Assembly (NCBI GenBank): GCA_003022125.1
Contig: PXQH01000069.1
Span: 1-24,000 of the forward strand
Length of the DNA: 24,000 nt
Source: Cyanobacteria bacterium QS_8_64_29
GTDB lineage: Bacteria; Cyanobacteriota; Cyanobacteriia; Cyanobacteriales; Rubidibacteraceae
Reading direction: 5' to 3'
Position numbers and translations under genes: made by a program. The stretch's first letter is position 1. Every line of letters starts with the position of its first letter. The notes beneath the pieces were generated by a model. It was not told the DNA's origin, made no database searches, and worked only from the letters and a program-made list of their open reading frames with translations. Shown piece by piece: positions 3,079 to 11,304 of this stretch.

Positions 3079-4368
3079 ATGCCCGTGGTCCACAACGAGC
3101 GGCTCCTGGACTGGCTGGGGACCGACTACAACGCCGCCGGCCTGCAGCAGCTGCGGGCCTTTTTGGCGCACCAGGGCACCCTGCAGTTCCCTAGCTTGCC
3201 CAACGGCCTGTTCCCGGCTGCCAGCGTCAGCAGCGAGACCGCCTACACCGGCTACGCCCACGTCTGGATCCGCGACAACATTCACATCGCCCACGCCCAC
3301 CACGCCACCGGCCGTACGGCGGTCGCGGCCCGCACGCTCGAGACGCTGATGGCCTACTGGCAAAAGCACCGCCACCGGCTGGATGCCATCATTGCCGGCC
3401 GCGCCCATCCCCAGGACCCCATGGCCCGGCCCCAGGTGCGCTTTGACGGCCGCAACCTGGCCGAGCTGTCGCAAAAGTGGGCCCACGCCCAAAACGACGC
3501 GCTGGGCTATTTCCTGTGGCTCTACAGCACGCTGGCGCGCGAGGGGGCCATCACCCTTAGCGCCGAAGCGGCCGAGACGCTGGCGCGCTTCCCACCCTAC
3601 TTGCGCGCCATCCAGTATTGGGCGGACCAAGACAGCGGCCACTGGGAAGAGACCCCCAAAATTGAGGCCTCCAGCATTGGGACGGTCCTGGCGGGGCTCA
3701 AGGCCCTGCAGTCCCTGAGCGATCGCGGCGATTGCCCGCAGCTGGATGCCCGCGAGCTCGCCGATCTAATTGCGCGCGGCGAGGGGGCCCTCAGCGAGAT
3801 CCTGCCGGCGGAGTGCGTGCAGTCCCATCCCAGCCAGTACCGGCGCTACGATGCCGCGCTGCTGTTTTCGATCTATCCGCTGCAGGTGGTTGGGACCGAG
3901 ATGGCCGATCGCATCCTCGAGGACGTCACCACCCAGCTGCAGGGGACCTACGGCATCCGCCGCTACCGCGGGGACTCCTACTGGTGCGGCGACTACAAGC
4001 AGAAACTGGCCCCCGAGGAGCGCACGGCCGATTTTAGCGATCGCATTGAGGCGCGCGATGCGCTGCTGGCGCCCGGGGACGAAGCGCAGTGGTGCATTTT
4101 CGATCCCATCGTCTCGACGATCTACGGCCGCCGCTATCAAGCCTGGGGCCAACCGCACGACCGGGAGCGCCAGATTCACTACCTCAACCGCGCGCTGGGC
4201 CAGCTCACCGGTCCCGACAGCGGCTTTGAAGCGCTCCGCTGCCCCGAGCTCTACCACCGCGAAGGCGAGCGCTACGTCCCCAGCGATGCCACGCCGCTGC
4301 TGTGGACCCAAGGCAATTTGGCCGTGGCGCTGGAAGCAATGGCGCAGAGCGTGCAGGAGCCCGAATGA
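3079..4368 (+). CDS. Glycoside hydrolase family 15-like protein (glucoamylase/trehalase-like (alpha/alpha)6 barrel)
   Basis: GH15-type motifs are present: HVWIRDN, AQNDALGYFLW, DSGHWEE and YRGDSYW. The first ATG is at 3079; the tracked ORF opens at a TTG at 3043. The stop overlaps the next gene's start (ATGA at 4365-4368). Confidence 0.72.
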   Translation: MPVVHNERLLDWLGTDYNAAGLQQLRAFLAHQGTLQFPSLPNGLFPAASVSSETAYTGYAHVWIRDNIHIAHAHHATGRTAVAARTLETLMAYWQKHRHRLDAIIAGRAHPQDPMARPQVRFDGRNLAELSQKWAHAQNDALGYFLWLYSTLAREGAITLSAEAAETLARFPPYLRAIQYWADQDSGHWEETPKIEASSIGTVLAGLKALQSLSDRGDCPQLDARELADLIARGEGALSEILPAECVQSHPSQYRRYDAALLFSIYPLQVVGTEMADRILEDVTTQLQGTYGIRRYRGDSYWCGDYKQKLAPEERTADFSDRIEARDALLAPGDEAQWCIFDPIVSTIYGRRYQAWGQPHDRERQIHYLNRALGQLTGPDSGFEALRCPELYHREGERYVPSDATPLLWTQGNLAVALEAMAQSVQEPE

Positions 4369-5927
4369 GCGTGGAAGCGGCCACCGGCGAGACCGCGATC
4401 GCGCAGAACCTGGAGCGCTTTCTGGCGGTGCTGGCGGTGTCGCTGAGCGTCGCTACCCTCTCGCAGGTGGTGAGTTGGCTGCGCCAAGTTCCCTACACGC
4501 TGCTGCTGACTGTAGCCGGGCTGGGACTGGCTGTGTTGGACGTGCAGCTGGTCAGCCTCTCGCCCGAGCTGATTCTGGAGATCTTTTTGCCGCCGCTGCT
4601 GTTTGAGGCGGCTTGGAACATCCGCTGGCGCAACCTGCGGCGCAACTTGGTGCCTGTCCTGCTGTTTGCCGCGGCCGGCACGCTGGTCTCAGTGGTGGGC
4701 ATTGGCTGGGCCCTGAGCGCGTTCACGGCGTTCTCGCTGCCGGTGGCGCTGCTGGTAGGCGCCAGCTTGGCTGCCGTGGATCCGGTGGCGGTCATCGCGC
4801 TGTTTCGCGAGTTGGGTGCTGGCGAGCGGCTGACCGTGCTGATGGAGGGCGAGAGCCTGTTCAACGATGGCGTCGCCGTGGTGGCGTTTAGCCTGCTGGT
4901 GGGTATCCCGCTGGGCACCGAGACCTTCGACTGGACGGTGACGGCCACCCGATTTTTGACCTTTGCCGGACTGGGGGTAGGCATCGGCTGCCTGGTGGGC
5001 TTTGGCATTGCCTACCTCACCCAGCGCTTTGACCTGCCCTCAGTCGAGCAAGCGCTGACGCTGGTGGCGGCGTACGGCACCTACTTGCTGGCCGAGGAAG
5101 CAGGCGGCTCGGGGGTTATTGGCGTGGTCGTCGTGGGCCTGATCCTGGGCAATTTTGGATCCCGCATCGGCATGAATCCGCGCACGCGGTTGCTGGTAAG
5201 CGAGTTTTGGGAGTTTTTGGCCTTTTTTGTCAACTCCATTGTCTTTTTGCTCATTGGGGACCAAATCGACATTGCCAGCCTAGGCGACAGCCTCGACTTC
5301 ATCCTGCTGGCGATCACTGCAACGCTCATAGCGCGGGCCGCAGCCATTTACGGCCTGGGCAGCCTCAGCGACGCGCTGGCTGGCACCCAACTGGGGTGGC
5401 GCGTGCAAACCGTGCTCTGGTGGGGCGGGCTGCGCGGCTCGGTCTCCATTGCCCTGGCGCTGAGCGTTCCGGTAGCGCTGGAGGCGCGCCAGAGCATTAT
5501 CGAGACGGTGTTTGGGGTGGTGCTGTTTACGCTGCTGGTGCAGGGGTTGAGCGAGCGCTGGGTGCTGCAGAGGCTGGGCATGACCGGCGACCGGGCGACC
5601 CAGCAGGCCTACGCCCAAGCGGTGGCGCGCCGCGTGGCTCTGCAGCGCGCGCTGGATTACCTCTCGCAAGCCGAGGAATCGCCCGAGATCGAGCTGGCGT
5701 CCTATCAGCCCGAGCACGAGACGGTCCGCGCCAAGCTCCAGGACGTCGAAGCCGAGATCGAGCGCTTGCAGCAAGCCAGCCCCGGATTGCGATCGCTGGA
5801 TCGCGAGCGCCTGCGCGAGCGGCTGCTGGACATTGAAGCCGATACCTACGCCGAGTTCCTACAAGCGGGACGCCTCGATTGCAACCTGCAACCGCTGCTG
5901 CGCGATCTGCTAGACGAGAGCACCTAG
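4365..5927 (+). CDS. Na+/H+ antiporter, CPA1 (NhaP/NhaS1-type), with a cytoplasmic C-terminal tail
   Basis: The protein is polytopic and hydrophobic, with typical CPA1 segments (ILEIFLPPLLFEAAW, ESLFNDGVAVV, WGGLRGSVSIALAL). The start was chosen at the ATG in the ATGA overlap with the upstream stop. The ORF-track start at 4302 lies inside the GH15 gene. Confidence 0.85.
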   Translation: MSVEAATGETAIAQNLERFLAVLAVSLSVATLSQVVSWLRQVPYTLLLTVAGLGLAVLDVQLVSLSPELILEIFLPPLLFEAAWNIRWRNLRRNLVPVLLFAAAGTLVSVVGIGWALSAFTAFSLPVALLVGASLAAVDPVAVIALFRELGAGERLTVLMEGESLFNDGVAVVAFSLLVGIPLGTETFDWTVTATRFLTFAGLGVGIGCLVGFGIAYLTQRFDLPSVEQALTLVAAYGTYLLAEEAGGSGVIGVVVVGLILGNFGSRIGMNPRTRLLVSEFWEFLAFFVNSIVFLLIGDQIDIASLGDSLDFILLAITATLIARAAAIYGLGSLSDALAGTQLGWRVQTVLWWGGLRGSVSIALALSVPVALEARQSIIETVFGVVLFTLLVQGLSERWVLQRLGMTGDRATQQAYAQAVARRVALQRALDYLSQAEESPEIELASYQPEHETVRAKLQDVEAEIERLQQASPGLRSLDRERLRERLLDIEADTYAEFLQAGRLDCNLQPLLRDLLDEST

Positions 5928-6050
5928 AATTGCCTTTTGCTGTAAAGGCGCAACGCTACTATGGAAAACGCAGGCTGTTATTAGCCCTCTTTGGGGATGC
6001 CAATACTAATTGAAATATACCTGTAGTAGCAGCACTCAGGGGGAATTGTT

Positions 6051-6566
6051 ATGACCTATAAATCCAAGGCAATCGCAAACTACTTTATCGACCGCGCTAG
6101 AGAGGAGGGACGCAGTCTTACTCCCTTGCAACTGATTAAGTTAGTTTATATTGCGCACGGCTGGCATCTTGCTATAACGGGAAACCCCTTAATAGAAGAG
6201 CGGGTTCACGCCTGGAAATACGGACCAGTAATTGAGGATCTATACCATGCCTTTAAAGAGTTTGGGGGCAGGCCAGTCGAACGGAAAGCCCAGGAAGTTA
6301 GGCCGCTAAACAATAGCTTCCATGCCGAAATCCCCGAACTGGATGAAACCGATCCAAGCTACAATAAAGCGATCGAGATACTCGACCGCGTATGGAAATC
6401 GTACTCGCACTACTCGGCTGGGAACCTTGTAGAAGTCACGCATGCTGCAGGAACACCTTGGTCCGAGGCTTACAACGAGCGTGGCCCCAATGCTGTCATC
6501 CACGATGATGACATTCGGAAATGCTTTATTGAAAAAGCGCACGCAAGGCACGCTCGAAACCATTAA
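6051..6566 (+). CDS. DUF4065 / Panacea-domain protein (SocA/PanA/GepA-like; putative antitoxin)
   Basis: 171 aa. It shows the characteristic pattern AIANYFI...LTPLQLIKLVYIAHGWHLAITGNPLIEERVHAWKYGPVIEDLYHAFKEFG, then VWKSYSHYSAGNLVEVTHAAGTPW. An AGGGGG Shine-Dalgarno-like motif lies 8-13 nt upstream of the ATG. G+C is much lower than in the flanking genes. Confidence 0.8.
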   Translation: MTYKSKAIANYFIDRAREEGRSLTPLQLIKLVYIAHGWHLAITGNPLIEERVHAWKYGPVIEDLYHAFKEFGGRPVERKAQEVRPLNNSFHAEIPELDETDPSYNKAIEILDRVWKSYSHYSAGNLVEVTHAAGTPWSEAYNERGPNAVIHDDDIRKCFIEKAHARHARNH

Positions 6567-6574
6567 CGCTTGAG

Positions 6575-6958
6575 ATGGCAAATGAGCCAGAGCAAAGCGA
6601 TCCTCCCTCTGTCGAGGATATTGGCGAAACCGCACCGGACAAACCTAGTGAAGAGTCTAAAACTCTAGCTCAAGAGTTCGGTCAAACTTCCAAAAGGGAT
6701 TACGATCGGGAATTACAGGACGAGAAATTAAAGCAGCAGCAGCAAGACCGTCAAGGCCGTGGAAAATTCACCTGCACCATATTTATCTTAATTTGCTGTT
6801 GGCTGGCTGGACTTATAACGATTCTGCTTTTTCAGGGATGGGAATTCTGCGGATTCAAGCTCTCGAATGCTGTTTTGATTACCTTTATTGGTGGCACAAC
6901 CGGTAACGTTATTGGCCTGCTGTTTATCGTCCTACGCTATCTGTTCCCAAAAGGTTGA
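6575..6958 (+). CDS. Hypothetical small membrane protein (acidic, disordered N-terminus plus two C-terminal TM helices); putative toxin/effector partner of the Panacea protein
   Basis: 127-aa ORF starting 9 nt after the upstream stop. The N-terminal 60 aa or so are rich in D/E/K/Q, with KQQQQD encoded by a short CAG run. Two hydrophobic segments follow: FTCTIFILICCWLAGLITILLF and AVLITFIGGTTGNVIGLLFIVL. I recognise no family. The functional call is inference from gene context. Confidence 0.55.
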   Translation: MANEPEQSDPPSVEDIGETAPDKPSEESKTLAQEFGQTSKRDYDRELQDEKLKQQQQDRQGRGKFTCTIFILICCWLAGLITILLFQGWEFCGFKLSNAVLITFIGGTTGNVIGLLFIVLRYLFPKG

Positions 6959-7073
6959 TTGAGGAGATCTCTTTAGCAGAACGACTTTGTTCGTGAACGA
7001 TATCTGTTAAAACAATTGAGAGGCTAGTGGATTTCCCACTAGCATAGGGGGTGCTGGTAAGTGGGTCGGCGTC

Positions 7074-7177
7074 ATACCAATTTGAGCAGTGGATGCACGT
7101 TTACCAAAGAACATGACTCCCATATTGAGGGGGTTTCGAAGGTCAAAATCTAGTGCACAAGCCACGAGAATTGGTAT
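7074..7177 (+). mobile_element. MITE-like 104-bp repeat unit, copy A (short terminal inverted repeats ATACCAA...TTGGTAT)
   Basis: By manual alignment there are 4 mismatches over 104 nt against 12023-12126. The unit starts ATACCAATTTGAG and ends GAGAATTGGTAT. It directly abuts the truncated GNAT gene. Confidence 0.8.
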
Positions 7178-7178
7178 C

Positions 7179-7466
7179 AGTGGGGTCGAACAGTACGGAG
7201 CCGAGGGAGTCCTCCGCTCTCTCGTCATTGAATCCTCGAAGCGCGGGATGGGGTATGGGAAAGCTCTCTGTGACGCTCTGGAAACGAGCGCGAAGGCAGC
7301 AGGCGTCACAACGCTATACCTCCTAACTGCGAGTGCAGCCAAGTTCTTTGCCGCCCGAGGTTACGTCAAAATCGACCGGAGCGATGCTCTAGTCGTGGTC
7401 CGCCGAACGCCAGAGTTTACCGATCTTTGCCCCGAGATGGCGGTCTGTATGTACAAACTGCTGTAG
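7179..7466 (+). pseudogene. GNAT-family N-acetyltransferase (ArsN2-like), 5'-truncated fragment
   Basis: The sequence GVEQYGAEGVLRSLVIESSKRGMGYGKALCDALE...LYLLTASAAKFFAARGYVKIDRSD...TPEFTDLCPEMAVCMYKLL matches the C-terminal two-thirds or so of ArsN2-type GNATs, including the acetyl-CoA motif and the ...LCP..AVCM.K tail. The N-terminal 50 aa or so are replaced by the repeat unit, and the ORF-track N-terminus (7089-7178) is read-through of that repeat. Confidence 0.7.
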
Positions 7467-7631
7467 CTCACGCCTCCACAAACAGGAGCTGGCTTTTCGT
7501 ACGTTCTGCTTTTAAGTTTGAAGTTGCATGCACTTGAAATCACATTTTATTTTACTCTTAGCCATGACTGATATCAACTACGGGTAATATTACACTTTCT
7601 TAGCGGAGCAAACCGCTCGGCTCGTCTACGC

Positions 7632-7654
7632 AGCAGGAAAAATTTTTTCCTGCT
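7632..7654. promoter_or_regulatory. Palindrome AGCAGG-A5/T6-CCTGCT immediately upstream of the HTH gene (candidate operator)
   Basis: A near-perfect 23-bp inverted repeat ends 11 nt before the ATG at 7666. No U-tract follows on either strand, so an operator is more likely than a terminator. Confidence 0.3.
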
Positions 7655-7665
7655 AGAGTAAAAGC

Positions 7666-7865
7666 ATGCATCAAAAGGTTGTCCGCTACCGCCAGGAGCA
7701 GGAGTTGACCCAAGCTCAGCTGGCCGAGCGAGTCGGCTGCACCAAGCGTCACATCCGAGGGGTTGAAGCCGGCGAAAACGCCTCAGCGCCCTTATTCGCC
7801 GGTTGGAAGTAGCCTTGGGATGCAGGCCGCAAGACCTCATTGGAGACCATAATGAAACCTTGTAA
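7666..7865 (+). pseudogene. XRE-family helix-turn-helix regulator, interrupted by a 1-nt frameshift
   Basis: The frame from the ATG at 7666 reads MHQKVVRYRQEQELTQAQLAERVGCTKRHIRGVEAGENASAP and stops at 7812. The expected continuation, (L)IRRLEVALGCRPQDLIGDHNETL*, lies in the frame beginning at 7788 and ends at 7865. The shift is at the C-run 7789-7791, consistent with a single-base deletion or a sequencing error. Confidence 0.65.
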
Positions 7866-8216
7866 CCTCGCTGCAGCGCTAGTTGTTGCCGCAGCTACTA
7901 CCGCTGCATCCGCCCCCGCGTTTGGGTATTCGAACGCAACTCGCATTAGCTTTCCCAGAGGCGGCTACTGCGGCTCTTTCTCCGGTGAGATCTCGACTCC
8001 TCATCGTTTTCTGCTGGGGCTACGTTCAGGGCAAGTGCTTAGAGTTGAAACGTCGGGCGAAACGTATCCTGTTAAAGTGGTTGTCCAACAGTTGAGGTGG
8101 CACCATCTCAGCACCACGGAGAGGTTTATAACTATCAACTGCCTGCAAGCGGCGATTATGCAGTAGCCGTTCGCTCGCAGACTGGCTACGCCCGCCTGCA
8201 GTTTTGCGCCAACTAA
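7852..8216 (+). pseudogene. Small secreted Cys-pair protein, paralog of 8774-9142, interrupted by a frameshift
   Basis: A signal peptide (MKPCNLAAALVVAAATTAASAPAFG) is followed by TRISFPRGGYCGSFSGEIS..RFLLGLRSGQVLRV. After about 8077-8085 the homologous continuation (VEVAPSQHHGEVYNYQLPASGDYAVAVRSQTGYARLQFCAN*) is in another frame and ends at 8216. The whole sequence aligns along its length with the intact paralog. Confidence 0.6.
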
Positions 8217-8267
8217 CCAAGCGTGGTTGGGGAATTGAGTCTGGAATGTCCCAGGCTCTGCCGCAGC

Positions 8268-8637
8268 CGTCCTCTAGCGCCGTGGTGGCATGGCTGCAGC
8301 GCAGCCAGTAGGGCGAGACCTGCTCGGTAATGTCGGTCCAGCGGACTGCCTGCGGCAGTTGGTGCAGTCGCTGCCAGAGGGCTTTGGGGACTAGCACCGT
8401 GAGCGTCTTGTGCCTGCTATAGACCGTGGCCTAGCTGCCGCAATCGCGCGGTGCCAGGTCCTGCCAGTGCAGGTTGTAGGCCTTACTGACTCGCAACCCG
8501 CAGCGGTTACAGCAGTGCCAGCGGGACACGATCGCGCTCGGCGCTGCAATCAGCCGCTCGGCATAATCAGAGCTTAGGATGCCCCCATTGCAGGTGTCCC
8601 AAACAGCCGGCGGCGAGATGGCTGAGCCAGCGGACAA
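8268..8637 (-). pseudogene. Tyrosine recombinase / phage-type integrase remnant
   Basis: Catalytic-domain blocks are recognisable: ...AERLIAAPS...CGLRVSKAYNLHWQDLAPRD.GS*ATVYSRHKTLTVLVPKALWQRLHQL...SPYWLRCSHATTALEDG. There is an in-frame TAG at 8431-8433 and an apparent internal deletion between the LWQxL block and the HWLRH block. The N-terminal domain and the C-terminal catalytic Tyr region are both missing. Confidence 0.65.
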
Positions 8638-8694
8638 AGGGACCGCATGGGGCTGGCCCGATCCGGAGGAGCTACCCGAACCGTTGCTTCCCTA

Positions 8695-8733
8695 GCCTAT
8701 GGTTCGCTAAGCGCCTATGGTTCGCTAAGCGCC
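8695..8733. repeat. Tandem direct repeat, 18-bp unit GCCTATGGTTCGCTAAGC x2 plus a partial third copy (GCC)
   Basis: The copies at 8695-8712 and 8713-8730 are exact, and GCC follows at 8731-8733. The repeat sits between the integrase remnant and the 3' end of the secreted-protein gene. Confidence 0.9.
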
Positions 8734-8773
8734 GATAACACTACTACTTGCGAGGGAGGAGCGGCGAGTACGT

Positions 8774-9142
8774 TTAGTAAGCACAAAACTCGATTTTGCC
8801 GCTACGCGCGGGCGCACTCACCTCGACGATGTAGTCGCCGGCTTGCGGGATGCGATAGTTCGCTTGGTTGGGGGCCGCTTGCCACCCCGAGAGCATCCCG
8901 GTTGGCCCCGAAACGGCAATCCGATAGCTAGGCCCCAAGTTTCGCGTCACTAGCGTTTGGCCGCGGGCTAGCTCCAACAGAAACTGCCGGTCGCCACTCA
9001 ATTGGCCGGCGTAGGTACTGCAATAACTTCCCCGCGGAAACTCGATTCGCGTTGTCTTGCCCTGTCCCCACGCAGGCACGCTGCTTGCAGCAAAGGCAAC
9101 GATGGAAGCAACGGCGGCGTTAGCGAGGGCTCGATAGGTCAT
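8774..9142 (-). CDS. Small secreted Cys-pair protein (unknown family; beta-sandwich/PPC-like sequence pattern)
   Basis: 122 aa from the ATG at 9142. The signal peptide is MTYRALANAAVASIVAFAASSVPAWG. The mature part reads TTRIEFPRGSYCSTYAGQLSGDRQFLLELARGQTLV...YRIPQAGDYIVEVSAP..SGKIEFCAY. The two conserved Cys are shared with the paralog at 7852-8216. The longer ORF-track start at 9268 adds a non-signal-like extension. Confidence 0.65.
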   Translation of the reverse strand: MTYRALANAAVASIVAFAASSVPAWGQGKTTRIEFPRGSYCSTYAGQLSGDRQFLLELARGQTLVTRNLGPSYRIAVSGPTGMLSGWQAAPNQANYRIPQAGDYIVEVSAPARSGKIEFCAY

Positions 9143-9191
9143 TGGATGCAGTCCCAACAGCAGCAATCGCCACTCTTGACTAGCGCTTATA

Positions 9192-9220
9192 CGAATAGCC
9201 GAGCGCTTCCCAGGTGTCAA
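9192..9220 (-). promoter_or_regulatory. Candidate sigma70-type promoter for the secreted-protein gene (-35 TTGACA, 17-nt spacer, -10 TATTCG)
   Basis: On the minus strand, TTGACA lies at 9220-9215 and TATTCG at 9197-9192, roughly 45-50 nt upstream of the ATG at 9142. The -10 box is weak. Confidence 0.3.
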
Positions 9221-9309
9221 GCGGCAAAGCAGCACGCTCGCAACCTTGCGGTTGGTTGGCAGTGGCAAAACTACCTAGGTAGCGCTCACTTACTGAGTAG
9301 CGCTATTGA

Positions 9310-9337
9310 CAATCCCCCTAGCGGGGATTGCGTTTTT
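9310..9337 (+). terminator. Intrinsic-terminator-like hairpin (8-bp stem CAATCCCC/GGGGATTG, 5-nt loop) followed by TTTTT
   Basis: The stem spans 9310-9317 and 9323-9330, the loop is CTAGC, and the T-tract is at 9333-9337, on the plus strand only. No plus-strand gene is evident upstream. Confidence 0.45.
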
Positions 9338-9573
9338 GGCGACCTTCCCAAAAAGCTGGATTCAGCAGTCTTTGCTGCTTCAAGCAACGCCGCCATGCCG
9401 GATGGCAGCAAGGCCGGTGCCGGATTGCGTTTGACGCCAACCGCCGTGATCGCTGCCTCTACCTGCCACCTGAGGAGGCCAAGCATTACCTAGAAGGCTT
9501 AGTCGCTCCCTTCCAGCCGCCGGATGCCGAAGCGCCCCTGCCTGCCGACTGCGGTTGAGCGTTGCCTAGCGGC

Positions 9574-11304
9574 TCAAAACGCAAACTCCGTCCGGAGGAC
9601 GCCCACAAAGACCGTATCGCTATCGCTGTTGTGGTTGGGGTTAATGAGCGCATAACCGCCGGGCGTAATGTGGAGGCGCTCCGTGATGGGATAGCGGTAC
9701 TGTCCCTCAACCAACACCGAGGTCCCTTCGTCTTCGTAGGTAGCCGTATTGCCGCTACGGGTGTCCTCGAGCGTGGCGTCGCTAGCAGCGACCTTGGGCG
9801 GAATGGCAACGCTCACCCCCAACCGGTCGCCTTCCCGGGCTAGGTCCAGAAATGACAGGGTGGCACCGACGCTCCAGAGATCGGCATTGTCGCCGTCTGC
9901 CGCTATCAAATTTACGCTGGGGTCAAGACTGACGGATCGGCGACCGGTCACCTGCGGATCGGCGTTGGCATAGCTCCCCCACAAAGCGAAGTTAATGTCC
10001 TGGCCGATTTGGAAGTTGCTTTGGAGGCCGAAGCGATCGCTGGTTGTGGGAAGGGAGCCAAAGGGCTGTTGCCCGATGGGACTGCCCGCACCAACTACAC
10101 TGGAGGCCGATTTGAAGTCGCTATCAGTGTAGGTGTGCGCGTAGGTAAAGGCTAAGTCGATACTGTCATTAGGCTCAAAGCGGAGTTGGGCGAGCGCGCC
10201 GGTATTGCCTTGAAACAAGCCTTCTCCGCCGGGGCGGGGATTGCGCGCATCGCCTCCAACACCATAGAAAACGCCCAAGCTCAGCGCATCCGAGAAATCA
10301 AAGCTCGTGCCCACTGAAAAATCTTGCGGGATGCCAAACACGAGTTGGTCGCGCTGCAGCATCGAGCTCAAGCTGCCGCTATTGTCCTGCCTAAAGAGTG
10401 GATTGAGCGGGCGGATGGCGCCTTCATCGGCATCGACACCAGCAGCGCCAATAAAGACGCGCGTACGCTGACCGAGGGGAAATTCGTAGGCCAGCGCATC
10501 GAGCACGATGTCATTATTGCCACCACCCAAATCCAGGGCAGTCATGTCAGTGCCGGTGGTTGCGGCGCCAAACGATTCGATATTGCGCGCTTCGTACTCT
10601 ACCGCCAGCTCATCGCGACCGGTAAAGCTGCTAGTGATGGCCAAAACCGCTCGGTTGCCAAAAACGGTTTCGTCTTGGACGGCGTTGGTCCTTGGCTCTC
10701 CGTCGAAGGTCAGGTTCTCGAACTGACCGGCTAACGTCCCGACCGAATCAGCATCGAAAGCCTTAGCAAGAGTAAAAACGACCGTCCCGGAGAGCTTGGC
10801 CGTGGTGGAAAATTGGTTTTCCTCCAGCGTGGCAACGCGGCCTTCCAGGTTGTCCGCGCGCGTACCTAGCGTGGCGAGCTCGGCCTCGAATTCTTCGACT
10901 AGGCGCTGCAGTGTTTGCAGGTCCTCCTGACTTACCTGTTGCTGCTCTAGAGCCTGCAGGCATGAGTTGAAGCCGGCAACGAATTCGTAGCGGGTTAGGG
11001 CGCGGTCGCCGCGATAGGTTTGGTCTGGATAGCCCTCGATGCAGCCGTAGGTCTCGACCAGATTGCGCAGGGCTTCAAACACCCAGTCGCCTGGGGAAAC
11101 ATCGCGCAGTTGCGAGACGCTGTTGATCTGACTCTGGATGCGATCGCTTCGATTGCTGTAGTTCTCGATGCGATCGAGCGTTGCCGAGCGATCACTTGCC
11201 GGGACAGGGCTTGCCTCGCTGGCATTACCCCAAGTCCCAAGCAGCAGAGAAGCACCTGCCACGGCCGGGACCATCCGTTCCCAGGGCTGAACTAATTGTT
11301 TCAT
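9574..11304 (-). CDS. Outer-membrane porin with N-terminal SLH domain and OprB-type beta-barrel (cyanobacterial SomA/'iron uptake porin' type)
   Basis: 576 aa from the ATG at 11304, with a GAGGAG Shine-Dalgarno motif upstream. The order of elements is a signal peptide (MKQLVQPWERMVPAVAGASLLLG), an SLH motif (DVSPGDWVFEALRNLVETYGCIEGYPDQTYRGDRALTRYEFVAGF), a coiled-coil linker, a long beta-strand-pattern C-terminal domain, and a terminal ...EFAF. The gene contains two HIP1 sites (10033-10040 and 11140-11147). Confidence 0.88.
   Translation of the reverse strand: MKQLVQPWERMVPAVAGASLLLGTWGNASEASPVPASDRSATLDRIENYSNRSDRIQSQINSVSQLRDVSPGDWVFEALRNLVETYGCIEGYPDQTYRGDRALTRYEFVAGFNSCLQALEQQQVSQEDLQTLQRLVEEFEAELATLGTRADNLEGRVATLEENQFSTTAKLSGTVVFTLAKAFDADSVGTLAGQFENLTFDGEPRTNAVQDETVFGNRAVLAITSSFTGRDELAVEYEARNIESFGAATTGTDMTALDLGGGNNDIVLDALAYEFPLGQRTRVFIGAAGVDADEGAIRPLNPLFRQDNSGSLSSMLQRDQLVFGIPQDFSVGTSFDFSDALSLGVFYGVGGDARNPRPGGEGLFQGNTGALAQLRFEPNDSIDLAFTYAHTYTDSDFKSASSVVGAGSPIGQQPFGSLPTTSDRFGLQSNFQIGQDINFALWGSYANADPQVTGRRSVSLDPSVNLIAADGDNADLWSVGATLSFLDLAREGDRLGVSVAIPPKVAASDATLEDTRSGNTATYEDEGTSVLVEGQYRYPITERLHITPGGYALINPNHNSDSDTVFVGVLRTEFAF

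Follow-up and report, generated by a model that had tools for sequence, protein, structure and literature searches.

A putative PanA-PanT toxin-antitoxin cassette with a membrane-toxin candidate in a low-G+C patch of a cyanobacterial genome

Results

Two adjacent genes downstream of nhaP

The locus studied here lies in a stretch of 24,000 nucleotides of cyanobacterial DNA (contig PXQH01000069.1 of Cyanobacteria bacterium QS_8_64_29), which in its full length we call the window. Two genes sit side by side on its plus strand, both with ATG starts: ORF1 (6051-6566, 171 aa), which we name panA, and ORF2 (6575-6958, 127 aa), which we name panT. Gene calls for both are also present in identical metagenome contigs. 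The upstream neighbour of ORF1 encodes an NhaP-type Na+/H+ exchanger (4302-5927; PF00999, E 2.6e-72), which agrees with a preliminary description of this DNA that had placed the pair directly after the nhaP stop. That description had also put the two ORFs on the same strand with a gap of 9 nt between them; the strand is right, but the spacer is 8 nt long (6567-6574, plus strand). In this bicistronic arrangement panA and panT are likely translationally coupled, and at homologous loci the gap between the two genes ranges from -38 to +54 nt. The intergenic leader that runs from the nhaP stop to panA (5928-6050, plus strand) presumably carries a promoter and ribosome-binding site for the pair. Read from the sequence, it offers a putative ribosome-binding site, AGGGGGA, 7 nt 5' of the panA ATG; a consensus scan did not find a strong sigma-70-like site, nor any promoter or terminator above background.

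The base composition of the DNA changes at this point. The G+C content is 0.45-0.51 over about 5900-7200, compared to 0.60-0.69 in the surrounding DNA, and it stays below 0.58 until about 8000. The window has 20 HIP1 sites (GCGATCGC) where 1.15 would be expected, but not one between 5797 and 10032, so that the lower-G+C, HIP1-free patch noticed earlier is real on both counts. As a sign of foreign DNA, however, the missing HIP1 sites are weak evidence, because further HIP1 gaps of 3.1-3.8 kb are present in the window; the drop in G+C is the stronger signal. We place the low-G+C patch (no strand assigned) at 5930-8000 from its composition, the HIP1 gap and domain matches, with boundaries that are only approximate because a search around it for a tRNA, an integrase or convincing flanking repeats found none. 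In addition to the two-gene cassette, the patch contains a short gene for a GNAT protein (7089-7466) and, at 7666-7812, an Xre-HTH fragment of 48 aa. The patch is probably what remains of DNA that was acquired horizontally.

ORF1 is a standalone Panacea protein

ORF1 had been assigned to the DUF4065/Panacea family from hallmarks in its sequence, and the corresponding HMM search confirms it: the protein matches PF13274 (SocA_Panacea) with 86.1 bits (E 4e-24), well above the gathering cut-off of 25.7 bits, with residues 28-137 covering profile positions 1-112 of 113. It also matches phrog_1281 (E 1e-44) and is 42% identical (E 2e-37) to E. coli PanA WP_000287252.1, which together with PanT WP_000019185.1 forms a validated pair from predicted-toxin cluster T3 (Kurata et al., 2022, PNAS, PMC8832971). 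The architecture of ORF1 is the standalone one termed 'noNTD', known from PanAs whose partners are membrane toxins, with a single domain at residues 28-137 and no second Pfam match over threshold, and 'noNTD' is also the label of all T3 PanAs in parts 13 and 14 of Dataset S1 of Kurata et al. (PMC8832971).

Two residues of the Panacea core are of particular use for comparison. Bartonella PanA is a standalone Panacea protein that contacts the N-terminal region and pre-TM helix of its toxin, and the substitutions Y56A and H120E abolish its ability to neutralise (PMC10440598). With Bartonella taken as the mechanistic model, a conserved Y and a conserved H are present in ORF1 as well: Y57 (within AWKYGPV) is kept in 65 of 80 relatives and H131 (within TH..GTPW) in 77 of the 80. 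Judging by motif position, these two residues would be the counterparts of Y56 and H120 in Bartonella PanA and of Y56 and H117 in E. coli PanA.

ORF2 is a predicted membrane hairpin from a large family

A comparison of ORF2 with Pfam, NCBIfam, PADLOC and PHROG models returns nothing significant. It also looked like an orphan in a word-indexed search, which recovered only the protein itself and one fragment; this candidate reading was overturned by an exhaustive HMMER search, which finds homologs in 1,880 representative clusters at E<=1e-3 and in 260 at E<=1e-10. The earlier view of ORF2 as unrecognised does not hold, as the protein belongs to this 1,880-cluster family, homologous to E. coli PanT. 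ORF2 has all of the residues that are invariant in the family, among them W76, F94, V119, Y122 and F124.

The hydropathy profile places hydrophobic segments at residues 63-91 and 99-120, and the AF2 model (pLDDT 83) consists of a disordered tail, a long helix at residues 26-89 and a second helix at residues 98-123, so that the two C-terminal hydrophobic helices of the preliminary description return here as a predicted hairpin. Taking hydropathy, the AF2 model and the family alignment together, we assign TM helix 1 to residues 63-89 (6761-6841, plus strand), which include the invariant W76, and TM helix 2, for which HHalign is a further source, to residues 98-123 (6866-6943, plus strand). The second helix carries a motif, LSxxVLxxxIGGTTxNVxGxxxIVxxYLF, that is common to the ORF2 family and E. 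coli PanT (ALLGTSTISIVGLVGFVVSGLF). Foldseek, run with this model on the PDB, gave no match.

The region ahead of the hairpin (6575-6760, plus strand) is, on the strength of the AF2 model, charge and conservation, the putative cytoplasmic part of the protein and, after the Bartonella PanT:PanA model and mutagenesis (PMC10440598), its putative PanA-binding part. Residues 1-25 are disordered and acidic, and the helix at 26-62 ends in a conserved juxtamembrane motif, QD..R.K. Residues 1-50 carry a net charge of -10 and residues 51-64 one of +4, a distribution that fits the N-in/C-in topology that we infer for ORF2. This N-terminal half had been described as acidic and of low complexity, with a QQQQ run. 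The acidity and the run are both there (KQQQQD is encoded by AAG CAG CAG CAG CAA GAC), but the run is more than meaningless low complexity: in the alignment of the family Q57 is invariant, D58 is at least 90% conserved and R62 is conserved too. Q57 and D58, where the glutamine run ends, form the conserved QD motif of the family.

The ORF2 family is remotely related to E. coli PanT

Starting from ORF2 alone, E. coli PanT would be out of reach of BLAST and phmmer, and the relationship is found by comparing families. The ORF2-family HMM scores 32-44 bits against the E. coli phage-annotated 'PanT toxin', and HHalign matches the ORF2 family to the E. coli PanT family with a probability of 98.0% (E 2.7e-13) over 80 columns, or of 98.7% (E 1.9e-16) over 87 columns when an independent, genome-derived set of members is used. 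Composition does not account for this match: the real alignment scores 83.5, whereas its reversed version reaches 18.4 and the best of 20 column-shuffled versions 19.7. In the HHalign alignment ORF2 is only about 18% identical to E. coli PanT, and this over the TM half alone; the N-terminal regions, which are proposed to bind PanA, cannot be aligned. The aligned portion takes in the juxtamembrane region, TM1, the loop and TM2, and the two families have in common a W in TM1 and the motif (G/T)(G/S)T.x(N/S)(V/I)xG in TM2. As stand-ins for WP_000019185.1 we used WP_000019186.1 and WP_000019187.1, which adjoin WP_000287252.1 in RefSeq E. coli genomes; their adjacent accession numbers, and a locus that is 96-100% identical in DNA sequence among 79 genomes, suggest that they are alleles of it.

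On the evidence of these profile alignments, the ORF2 family is a remote homolog of E. coli PanT from T3, a cluster for which the taxon list of Kurata et al. includes Bacteroidetes, Proteobacteria, Deinococcus, Acidobacteria, Armatimonadetes and a filamentous cyanobacterium (PMC8832971). Membership in the family is no guarantee of toxin-antitoxin (TA) behaviour, because only 9 of 25 predicted pairs were validated in that study (8 toxins were non-toxic in E. coli and 5 were toxic and not rescued) and because, among the T3 members graded there, one from Vibrio cholerae is 'Toxic', not 'TA', and another was 'stuck in cloning' (PMC8832971). We also considered cluster T1, the largest predicted cluster, which is rich in cyanobacteria and includes a member from Salmonella phage Emek (PMC8832971). 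As a home for ORF2 it was rejected: the Emek partner YP_006560566.1, the sole T1 member compared, has no TM segment and fails to match the ORF2-family HMM (E 0.28, -2.1 bits).

The ORF2 family is found directly downstream of PanA

The pairing of the ORF2 family with PanA is far beyond chance. Looking forward from PanA, 79 PanA loci contain 22 members of the family; each of them is the next ORF after PanA on the same strand, and none lies elsewhere in these loci. Looking in reverse from the family, PanA is directly upstream of 10 of 10 members: six protein look-ups (6/6), chosen solely for their long contigs, and four members on viral contigs from IMG/VR (4/4), found by a tighter alignment. The flanking genes vary among the loci of the reverse test and the panA-panT adjacency is constant. 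The suggestion that homologs of ORF2 might recur beside Panacea genes is therefore borne out in both directions.

How far the family extends among the other partners of PanA is a separate matter. Iterated over the 79 PanA loci, the family HMM does not pick up any further TM ORF downstream of PanA, and HHalign of the ORF2 family against other partner clusters gives 85% for cluster 0 (24 columns only), 45% for cluster 2 and 0.9% for cluster 3. Because these matches are weak, we do not claim a single superfamily. One partner cluster, from alphaproteobacteria and Pseudohongiellaceae, is probably T12; its HHalign probability is 45% with the ORF2 family and 69% with that of E. coli PanT, and homology between this cluster and the ORF2 family is possible.

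Discussion

Proposed mechanism

We read ORF1-ORF2 as a horizontally acquired PanA-PanT type II TA module of the membrane-toxin class, and give this reading a probability of roughly 0.75, with the toxicity of ORF2 and its neutralisation by ORF1 as predictions. A membrane toxin neutralised by PanA is the best reading because ORF1 is a Panacea protein, ORF2 is a two-helix membrane protein and the linkage of its family to PanA is tight. The cassette would have been acquired by horizontal transfer as the small low-G+C patch. ORF1 would be translated just upstream of ORF2 from a shared transcript, and ORF2 would be made with an acidic N-terminal region of about 62 residues in the cytoplasm and would insert in the membrane as an N-in/C-in helical hairpin. 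PanT from E. coli and Bartonella depolarises and permeabilises the membrane, and the cognate PanA rescues (PMC8832971); by homology, free ORF2 would do the same to the cytoplasmic membrane, and this damage would stop transcription, translation and replication. By analogy with the Bartonella PanT:PanA model and mutagenesis (PMC10440598), ORF1 would bind the N-terminal tail and the juxtamembrane helix (QD..R.K) of ORF2 through direct protein-protein contact and block assembly of the active ORF2 membrane complex. We expect direct neutralisation of this sort and not the ClpXP-adaptor type. The biological role of such a module may be stabilisation of the island or defence against phage.

Alternative readings

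The second of these roles could be the main one. The cassette would then act chiefly in abortive infection against (cyano)phage, with Panacea sensing the infection and freeing the membrane toxin so that the cell dies or arrests; this is compatible with a TA module, and we give it tentative credence, about one chance in four. Ernits et al. (2023) propose a sensory Panacea, and RosmerTA, which depolarises the membrane, defends against phage (PMC10440598). The flanks of the cassette in the window hold no phage or defence genes. The E. coli homolog, present in 79 of 5,426 genomes, is prophage-borne, with prtN, exo and ea22 beside it. The pair is found on four IMG/VR viral contigs, PanA relatives are encoded in 159 phage genomes and at some loci an HTH+Peptidase_M78 gene precedes the pair, but a tblastn search of ORF2 against 50,697 phage genomes gave zero matches. 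In PADLOC-DB v2 ORF1 has a chance-level match only (E 0.041) and ORF2 has none, and a limited literature search turned up no PanAT membrane pair with a published phenotype in phage defence.

A more speculative idea, which we consider improbable, is that the unannotated ORF2 subfamily of at least 1,880 representative clusters, with the strongly conserved TM2 sequence IGGTTxNVxGxFxIVxxYLFPK, does not disrupt membranes non-specifically but forms a defined oligomeric channel that PanA gates on a signal such as cyanophage infection. If true, the cassette would be a cyanobacterial sensor-plus-channel defence module, and the ORF2 family, together with the TM partner clusters of distinct sequence beside PanAs of near-identical grade, would form a series in which to follow the recognition of many membrane toxins by one antitoxin fold.

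Slightly less probable again is that ORF2 does no harm and serves PanA as a partner in the membrane, for instance by anchoring it there or as a co-sensor; the conserved linkage would then reflect a two-component function outside of TA. [quoted passage not shown] This has to be weighed against the proven ability of a family homolog, E. coli PanT, to depolarise and permeabilise membranes, against the T3 members recorded by Kurata et al. as 'Toxic' or unclonable, and against a patchy, mobile distribution with changing flanks that is typical of TA modules.

We think it very unlikely that the module works as a type VI system like SocA-SocB of Caulobacter, with ORF1 as a proteolytic adaptor that hands the toxin to ClpXP instead of sequestering it. 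SocB is a soluble protein whose target is the DNA-replication clamp, and the partner of ORF1 is unlike it, a two-TM membrane hairpin with no NCBIfam match. The antitoxins do have the Panacea/SocA domain in common, and the NCBIfam SocA_antitoxin model aligns with ORF1 residues 4-163 (E 1.6e-32), but the score of ORF1 against the SocA equivalog NF047745 is 112.6 bits, far under the cut-off of 190, and PanA-toxin complexes indicate direct type II neutralisation (PMC8832971, PMC10440598). Equally unlikely is a decaying, non-functional mobile-element remnant, as might be supposed from the low-G+C setting, with a short GNAT gene and an HTH fragment of 48 aa for neighbours, and from the consensus scan that found no promoter-like site, since ORF1 and ORF2 are full-length, ORF2 keeps every invariant family residue and ORF1 the Panacea core, and three independent assemblies carry identical copies.

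Significance and comparison with known systems

The PanA-PanT cassette is of an already described kind and opens no new mechanism, the architecture, mode of toxicity and mode of neutralisation of this kind having been published in 2022-2023. The preliminary description had seen in it the most plausible undescribed system of the window, with a novel membrane effector; both claims fall, as the architecture is already in Kurata et al. (2022), the T3 homolog is validated and the ORF2 family is homologous to that validated E. coli PanT. In practice the result is of use mainly to annotators: the small membrane proteins of this very large family, so far 'hypothetical', can be labelled PanT (T3-like) toxin candidates because of their obligate PanA linkage and their homology to a validated toxin. 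The family, ORF2 included, is without a model in Pfam, NCBIfam, PADLOC or PHROG. In the host genome, the cassette flags a small horizontally acquired patch.

Several known systems invite comparison. The antitoxin of Hok is an RNA, and that of RmrT in RosmerTA is RmrA; both are of a different kind from PanA. HokB, the comparator of Kurata et al. (2022), and RmrT are like the predicted ORF2 toxin in being small, with C-terminal TM segments, in depolarising or permeabilising the membrane and in arresting all macromolecular synthesis; neither has a detectable sequence relationship to ORF2, which is without a PADLOC, Pfam or NCBIfam match. Compared by description, the PanA-PanT pairs of Bartonella apis and choladocola (T12, also D11) have the same charged N-terminus, C-terminal TM helices and standalone Panacea protein.

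The E. coli PanA-PanT pair shares the order of a standalone Panacea antitoxin gene, a short gap and a small toxin gene on the same strand, and its PanT resembles ORF2 in having a charged region at the N-terminus and a pair of TM helices at the C-terminus. The two toxins differ in length, 182 aa in E. coli and 127 aa here. Both cassettes are on mobile or foreign DNA, but the host here is a HIP1-rich cyanobacterium and the cassette lies outside any recognisable prophage. In its charged N-terminus, its C-terminal TM helices, its standalone PanA and its antitoxin-then-toxin order, the architecture around ORF2 is that of Kurata et al. (2022, PMC8832971).

The cassette and its genomic setting

ORF1 (6051-6566, + strand, 171 aa), a candidate panA gene, and ORF2 (6575-6958, + strand, 127 aa), a candidate panT gene, lie where the preliminary description placed them, after the stop of a 541-aa Na+/H+ exchanger gene (PF00999, E 2.6e-72); the spacer between them, which it gave as 9 nt, measures 8 nt (6567-6574). 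The lower-G+C patch that it described is also present, with values of 0.45-0.51 over the cassette versus 0.60-0.69 before the drop. The HIP1 site (GCGATCGC) occurs 20 times in the window versus 1.15 expected, consistent with a cyanobacterial host, and is indeed absent from 5797 to 10032. As other stretches of 3.1-3.8 kb in the window also lack HIP1, base composition is the stronger evidence of foreign DNA. We found no tRNA, integrase or flanking repeats at the ends of the patch. The cassette contig, with identical genes, is present in three public assemblies.

Inside the patch are also a short GNAT acetyltransferase ORF (7089-7466; Acetyltransf_7, E 2.9e-7) and a 48-aa Xre-type HTH fragment (7666-7812), apparently what is left of a larger acquired element. 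At 7024-7042, 66 nt 3' of the panT stop, a perfectly paired 7-bp hairpin without a T-run (CTAGTGG-ATTTC-CCACTAG) overlaps a weak promoter-like match (7016-7045). Two divergently placed ORFs (7840-8166, + strand; 8774-9268, - strand) encode small paralogous proteins (44% identity over 72 aa, E 4e-17), each with a hydrophobic segment at the N-terminus and the motif R(I)xFPRGxYC...FLLxL..GQ, and an 18-nt unit, GCCTATGGTTCGCTAAGC, stands in perfect tandem duplication (two copies) at 8695-8730.

ORF1 is a standalone Panacea protein

The assignment of ORF1 to the Panacea family holds in Pfam: it matches PF13274 (SocA_Panacea) over the full profile length at 86.1 bits (cut-off 25.7), and phrog_1281 among the PHROGs (1e-44). 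It also aligns to the NCBIfam SocA equivalog model, at 112.6 bits, well under the cut-off of 190; from these two scores we place it in the Panacea family rather than among the orthologs of SocA and, since it carries no additional domain, class it as a standalone PanA.

ORF2 belongs to a large family linked to panA

ORF2 had been called unrecognised, and no model in Pfam, NCBIfam, PADLOC or PHROG matches it; it is not, however, an orphan. A word-indexed protein search returned only ORF2 itself and one fragment, while HMMER, run exhaustively against 1.84 billion cluster representatives, returned 1,880 proteins at E<=1e-3, of which 260 reach E<=1e-10. Almost all of them are 100-165 aa long and align with ORF2 over its C-terminal two-thirds; every member lacks a name or is called 'hypothetical', and none has a Pfam domain. 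The family alignment runs from a variable, acidic N-terminus through a conserved juxtamembrane motif (QDxxeRKxYA), a first TM segment with an invariant W and a short loop (QG...F) to a second TM segment with the motif LSDxVLxxLIGGTTxNVLGxFxIVxxYLFPK. All invariant residues are present in ORF2, and the QQQQ run to which the preliminary description drew attention ends in the conserved Q57-D58.

The two C-terminal hydrophobic helices seen at the outset correspond to these TM segments. An AlphaFold2 model (67-sequence alignment, mean pLDDT 83) has a continuous helix (26-89) and, after a short loop, a second one (98-123), with residues 1-25 disordered; it matched no solved structure. Net charge is -10 over residues 1-50, in keeping with the acidic N-terminal half reported earlier, +4 over 51-64, 0 in the loop and +2 in the C-terminal tail, and family averages follow the same trend. 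Under the positive-inside rule this distribution points to a hairpin in the N-in/C-in orientation, its N-terminal stalk lying in the cytoplasm.

Linkage to Panacea genes is conserved in both directions. Among 79 loci of ~6.5 kb from many phyla that encode ORF1 relatives (35-50% identity), the family HMM detected 22 ORF2-family members, all 22 as the ORF immediately 3' of panA on the same strand, and no match elsewhere within those loci. Conversely, for the six family members selected solely because their contigs are long, the gene immediately 5' always belongs to PF13274 (6/6; gaps -32 to +70 nt), and panA likewise directly precedes the members from IMG/VR viral contigs (4/4). The remaining flanks of the six vary by site, with IS1595 transposases, Mu Gam and an HTH+Peptidase_M78 gene among them. 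These results clearly contradict the absence of conserved linkage that the preliminary description had named as a refutation, and the panA-panT pair behaves as a mobile two-gene unit. On three metagenome contigs (L085/L086/L088:1-2997), panAT immediately follows a 421-aa HTH_3 + Peptidase_M78 (ImmA/IrrE-like) gene and a BilD_N-domain gene, an arrangement that may represent a more extensive island with a role in defence or regulation.

Proposed mechanism

What the analysis shows is homology, linkage, predicted architecture and residue conservation; the first two support the toxin-antitoxin reading of the preliminary description, and the best-supported account of ORF1-ORF2 is a type II module. 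For a membrane PanT neutralised by a standalone Panacea antitoxin, Ernits et al. 2023 showed that Panacea touches both the unstructured N-terminal part of the toxin and a short helix just ahead of the TM region, and that the core substitutions Y56A and H120E leave the toxin unneutralised (PMC10440598). Judged by motif position, the corresponding ORF1 residues are probably Y57 (in AWKYGPV, conserved in 65/80 relatives) and H131 (in TH..GTPW, 77/80). PanA would sequester the cytoplasmic part of PanT at a presumably similar interface, and free PanT would insert into the membrane, depolarise or permeabilise it and arrest growth.

An anti-phage role by abortive infection is plausible and compatible with this mechanism: relatives are carried on prophages and viral contigs, but no PADLOC model matches ORF1 or ORF2 and no phage or defence genes adjoin the cassette in the window. 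ORF2 may instead be a non-toxic membrane partner, as many predicted PanTs were not validated (PMC8832971), against which stands its homology to a validated toxin. A SocAB-like adaptor mechanism is disfavoured by the sub-threshold SocA score of ORF1, and a decayed remnant by the intactness of both ORFs.

Relation to known PanAT systems

Kurata et al. 2022 named the Panacea domain, predicted 1,268 PanA-PanT pairs and validated nine, three with membrane toxins (E. coli, Bartonella, Helicobacter); when these toxins are expressed, transcription, translation and replication cease, the membrane is depolarised and SYTOX Green gets in (PMC8832971). The top tblastn match of ORF1 in phage genomes is an E. 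coli prophage gene annotated 'PanA', immediately followed by one annotated 'PanT toxin' (182 aa). The RefSeq accession of this PanA in E. coli genomes is WP_000287252.1, that of the antitoxin validated in the study (42% identity to ORF1, E 2e-37); its partners are WP_000019186.1 and WP_000019187.1, presumably alleles of the validated WP_000019185.1. The validated pair occurs in 79/5,426 complete E. coli genomes (e.g. L100:1501-2545, a locus of NZ_CP116044.1), always chromosomal, single-copy and at one end of a lambdoid/Stx-type prophage, adjoining prtN, exonuclease and ea22 genes.

PanAs 35-50% identical to ORF1 have at least four sequence-distinct clusters of small membrane partners (compared loci L005-L084, downstream ORFs at ~3450-4100 of each), and PanAs with different partners are roughly equal in their similarity to ORF1, in agreement with the partner swapping or fast toxin divergence described in the literature. 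With the E. coli PanT family, only ORF2's cluster gives a clear profile match. The probability reaches 69% for the alphaproteobacterial/Pseudohongiellaceae cluster, which is probably the published cluster T12; neither the Xanthomonadales cluster (165-219 aa, 2 TM) nor the Bacteroidota/Pseudomonas cluster (~105-135 aa, one long hydrophobic segment) shows convincing profile similarity. Membership of ORF2 in T1 was rejected: the Salmonella phage Emek partner, the sole T1 member compared, is unrelated and has no TM helix. In the portion of the published T3 entries available, every row has a standalone PanA and antitoxin-then-toxin order, and the taxa are Bacteroidetes, Gamma-, Alpha- and Betaproteobacteria, Deinococcus, Acidobacteria, Armatimonadetes and one filamentous cyanobacterium (PMC8832971). 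A solo PanA-like gene without an annotated partner, 35% identical to ORF1, occurs in the cyanophage Cylindrospermopsis raciborskii virus RM-2018a (MH636380.1, 88556-89521; L099:1492-2457), with an annotated CRISPR array ~180 nt 3' of it and DNA methyltransferase genes on the region's flanks.

The ORF2-family HMM scores E. coli PanT at 32-44 bits, and when the profile of the ORF2 family (51 sequences) is compared with that of the E. coli PanT family (34 sequences), the probability is 98.0% (E 2.7e-13) over 80 columns spanning the juxtamembrane region, both TM segments and the loop; an independent set of 21 genome-derived members gives 98.7% (E 1.9e-16, 87 columns). The real score of 83.5 compares with 18.4 for a reversed E. 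coli PanT alignment and a maximum of 19.7 in 20 column shuffles keeping regional composition. The 'novel effector' and 'undescribed system' proposed earlier are not supported; ORF1-ORF2 is a new, previously unannotated member of the known PanAT membrane-toxin class, and the worth of the finding is the annotation of a large 'hypothetical' protein family. The correspondence can be discerned by eye, between FIGGTTGNVIGLLFIVLRYLF of ORF2 and LLGTSTISIVGLVGFVVSGLF of E. coli PanT.
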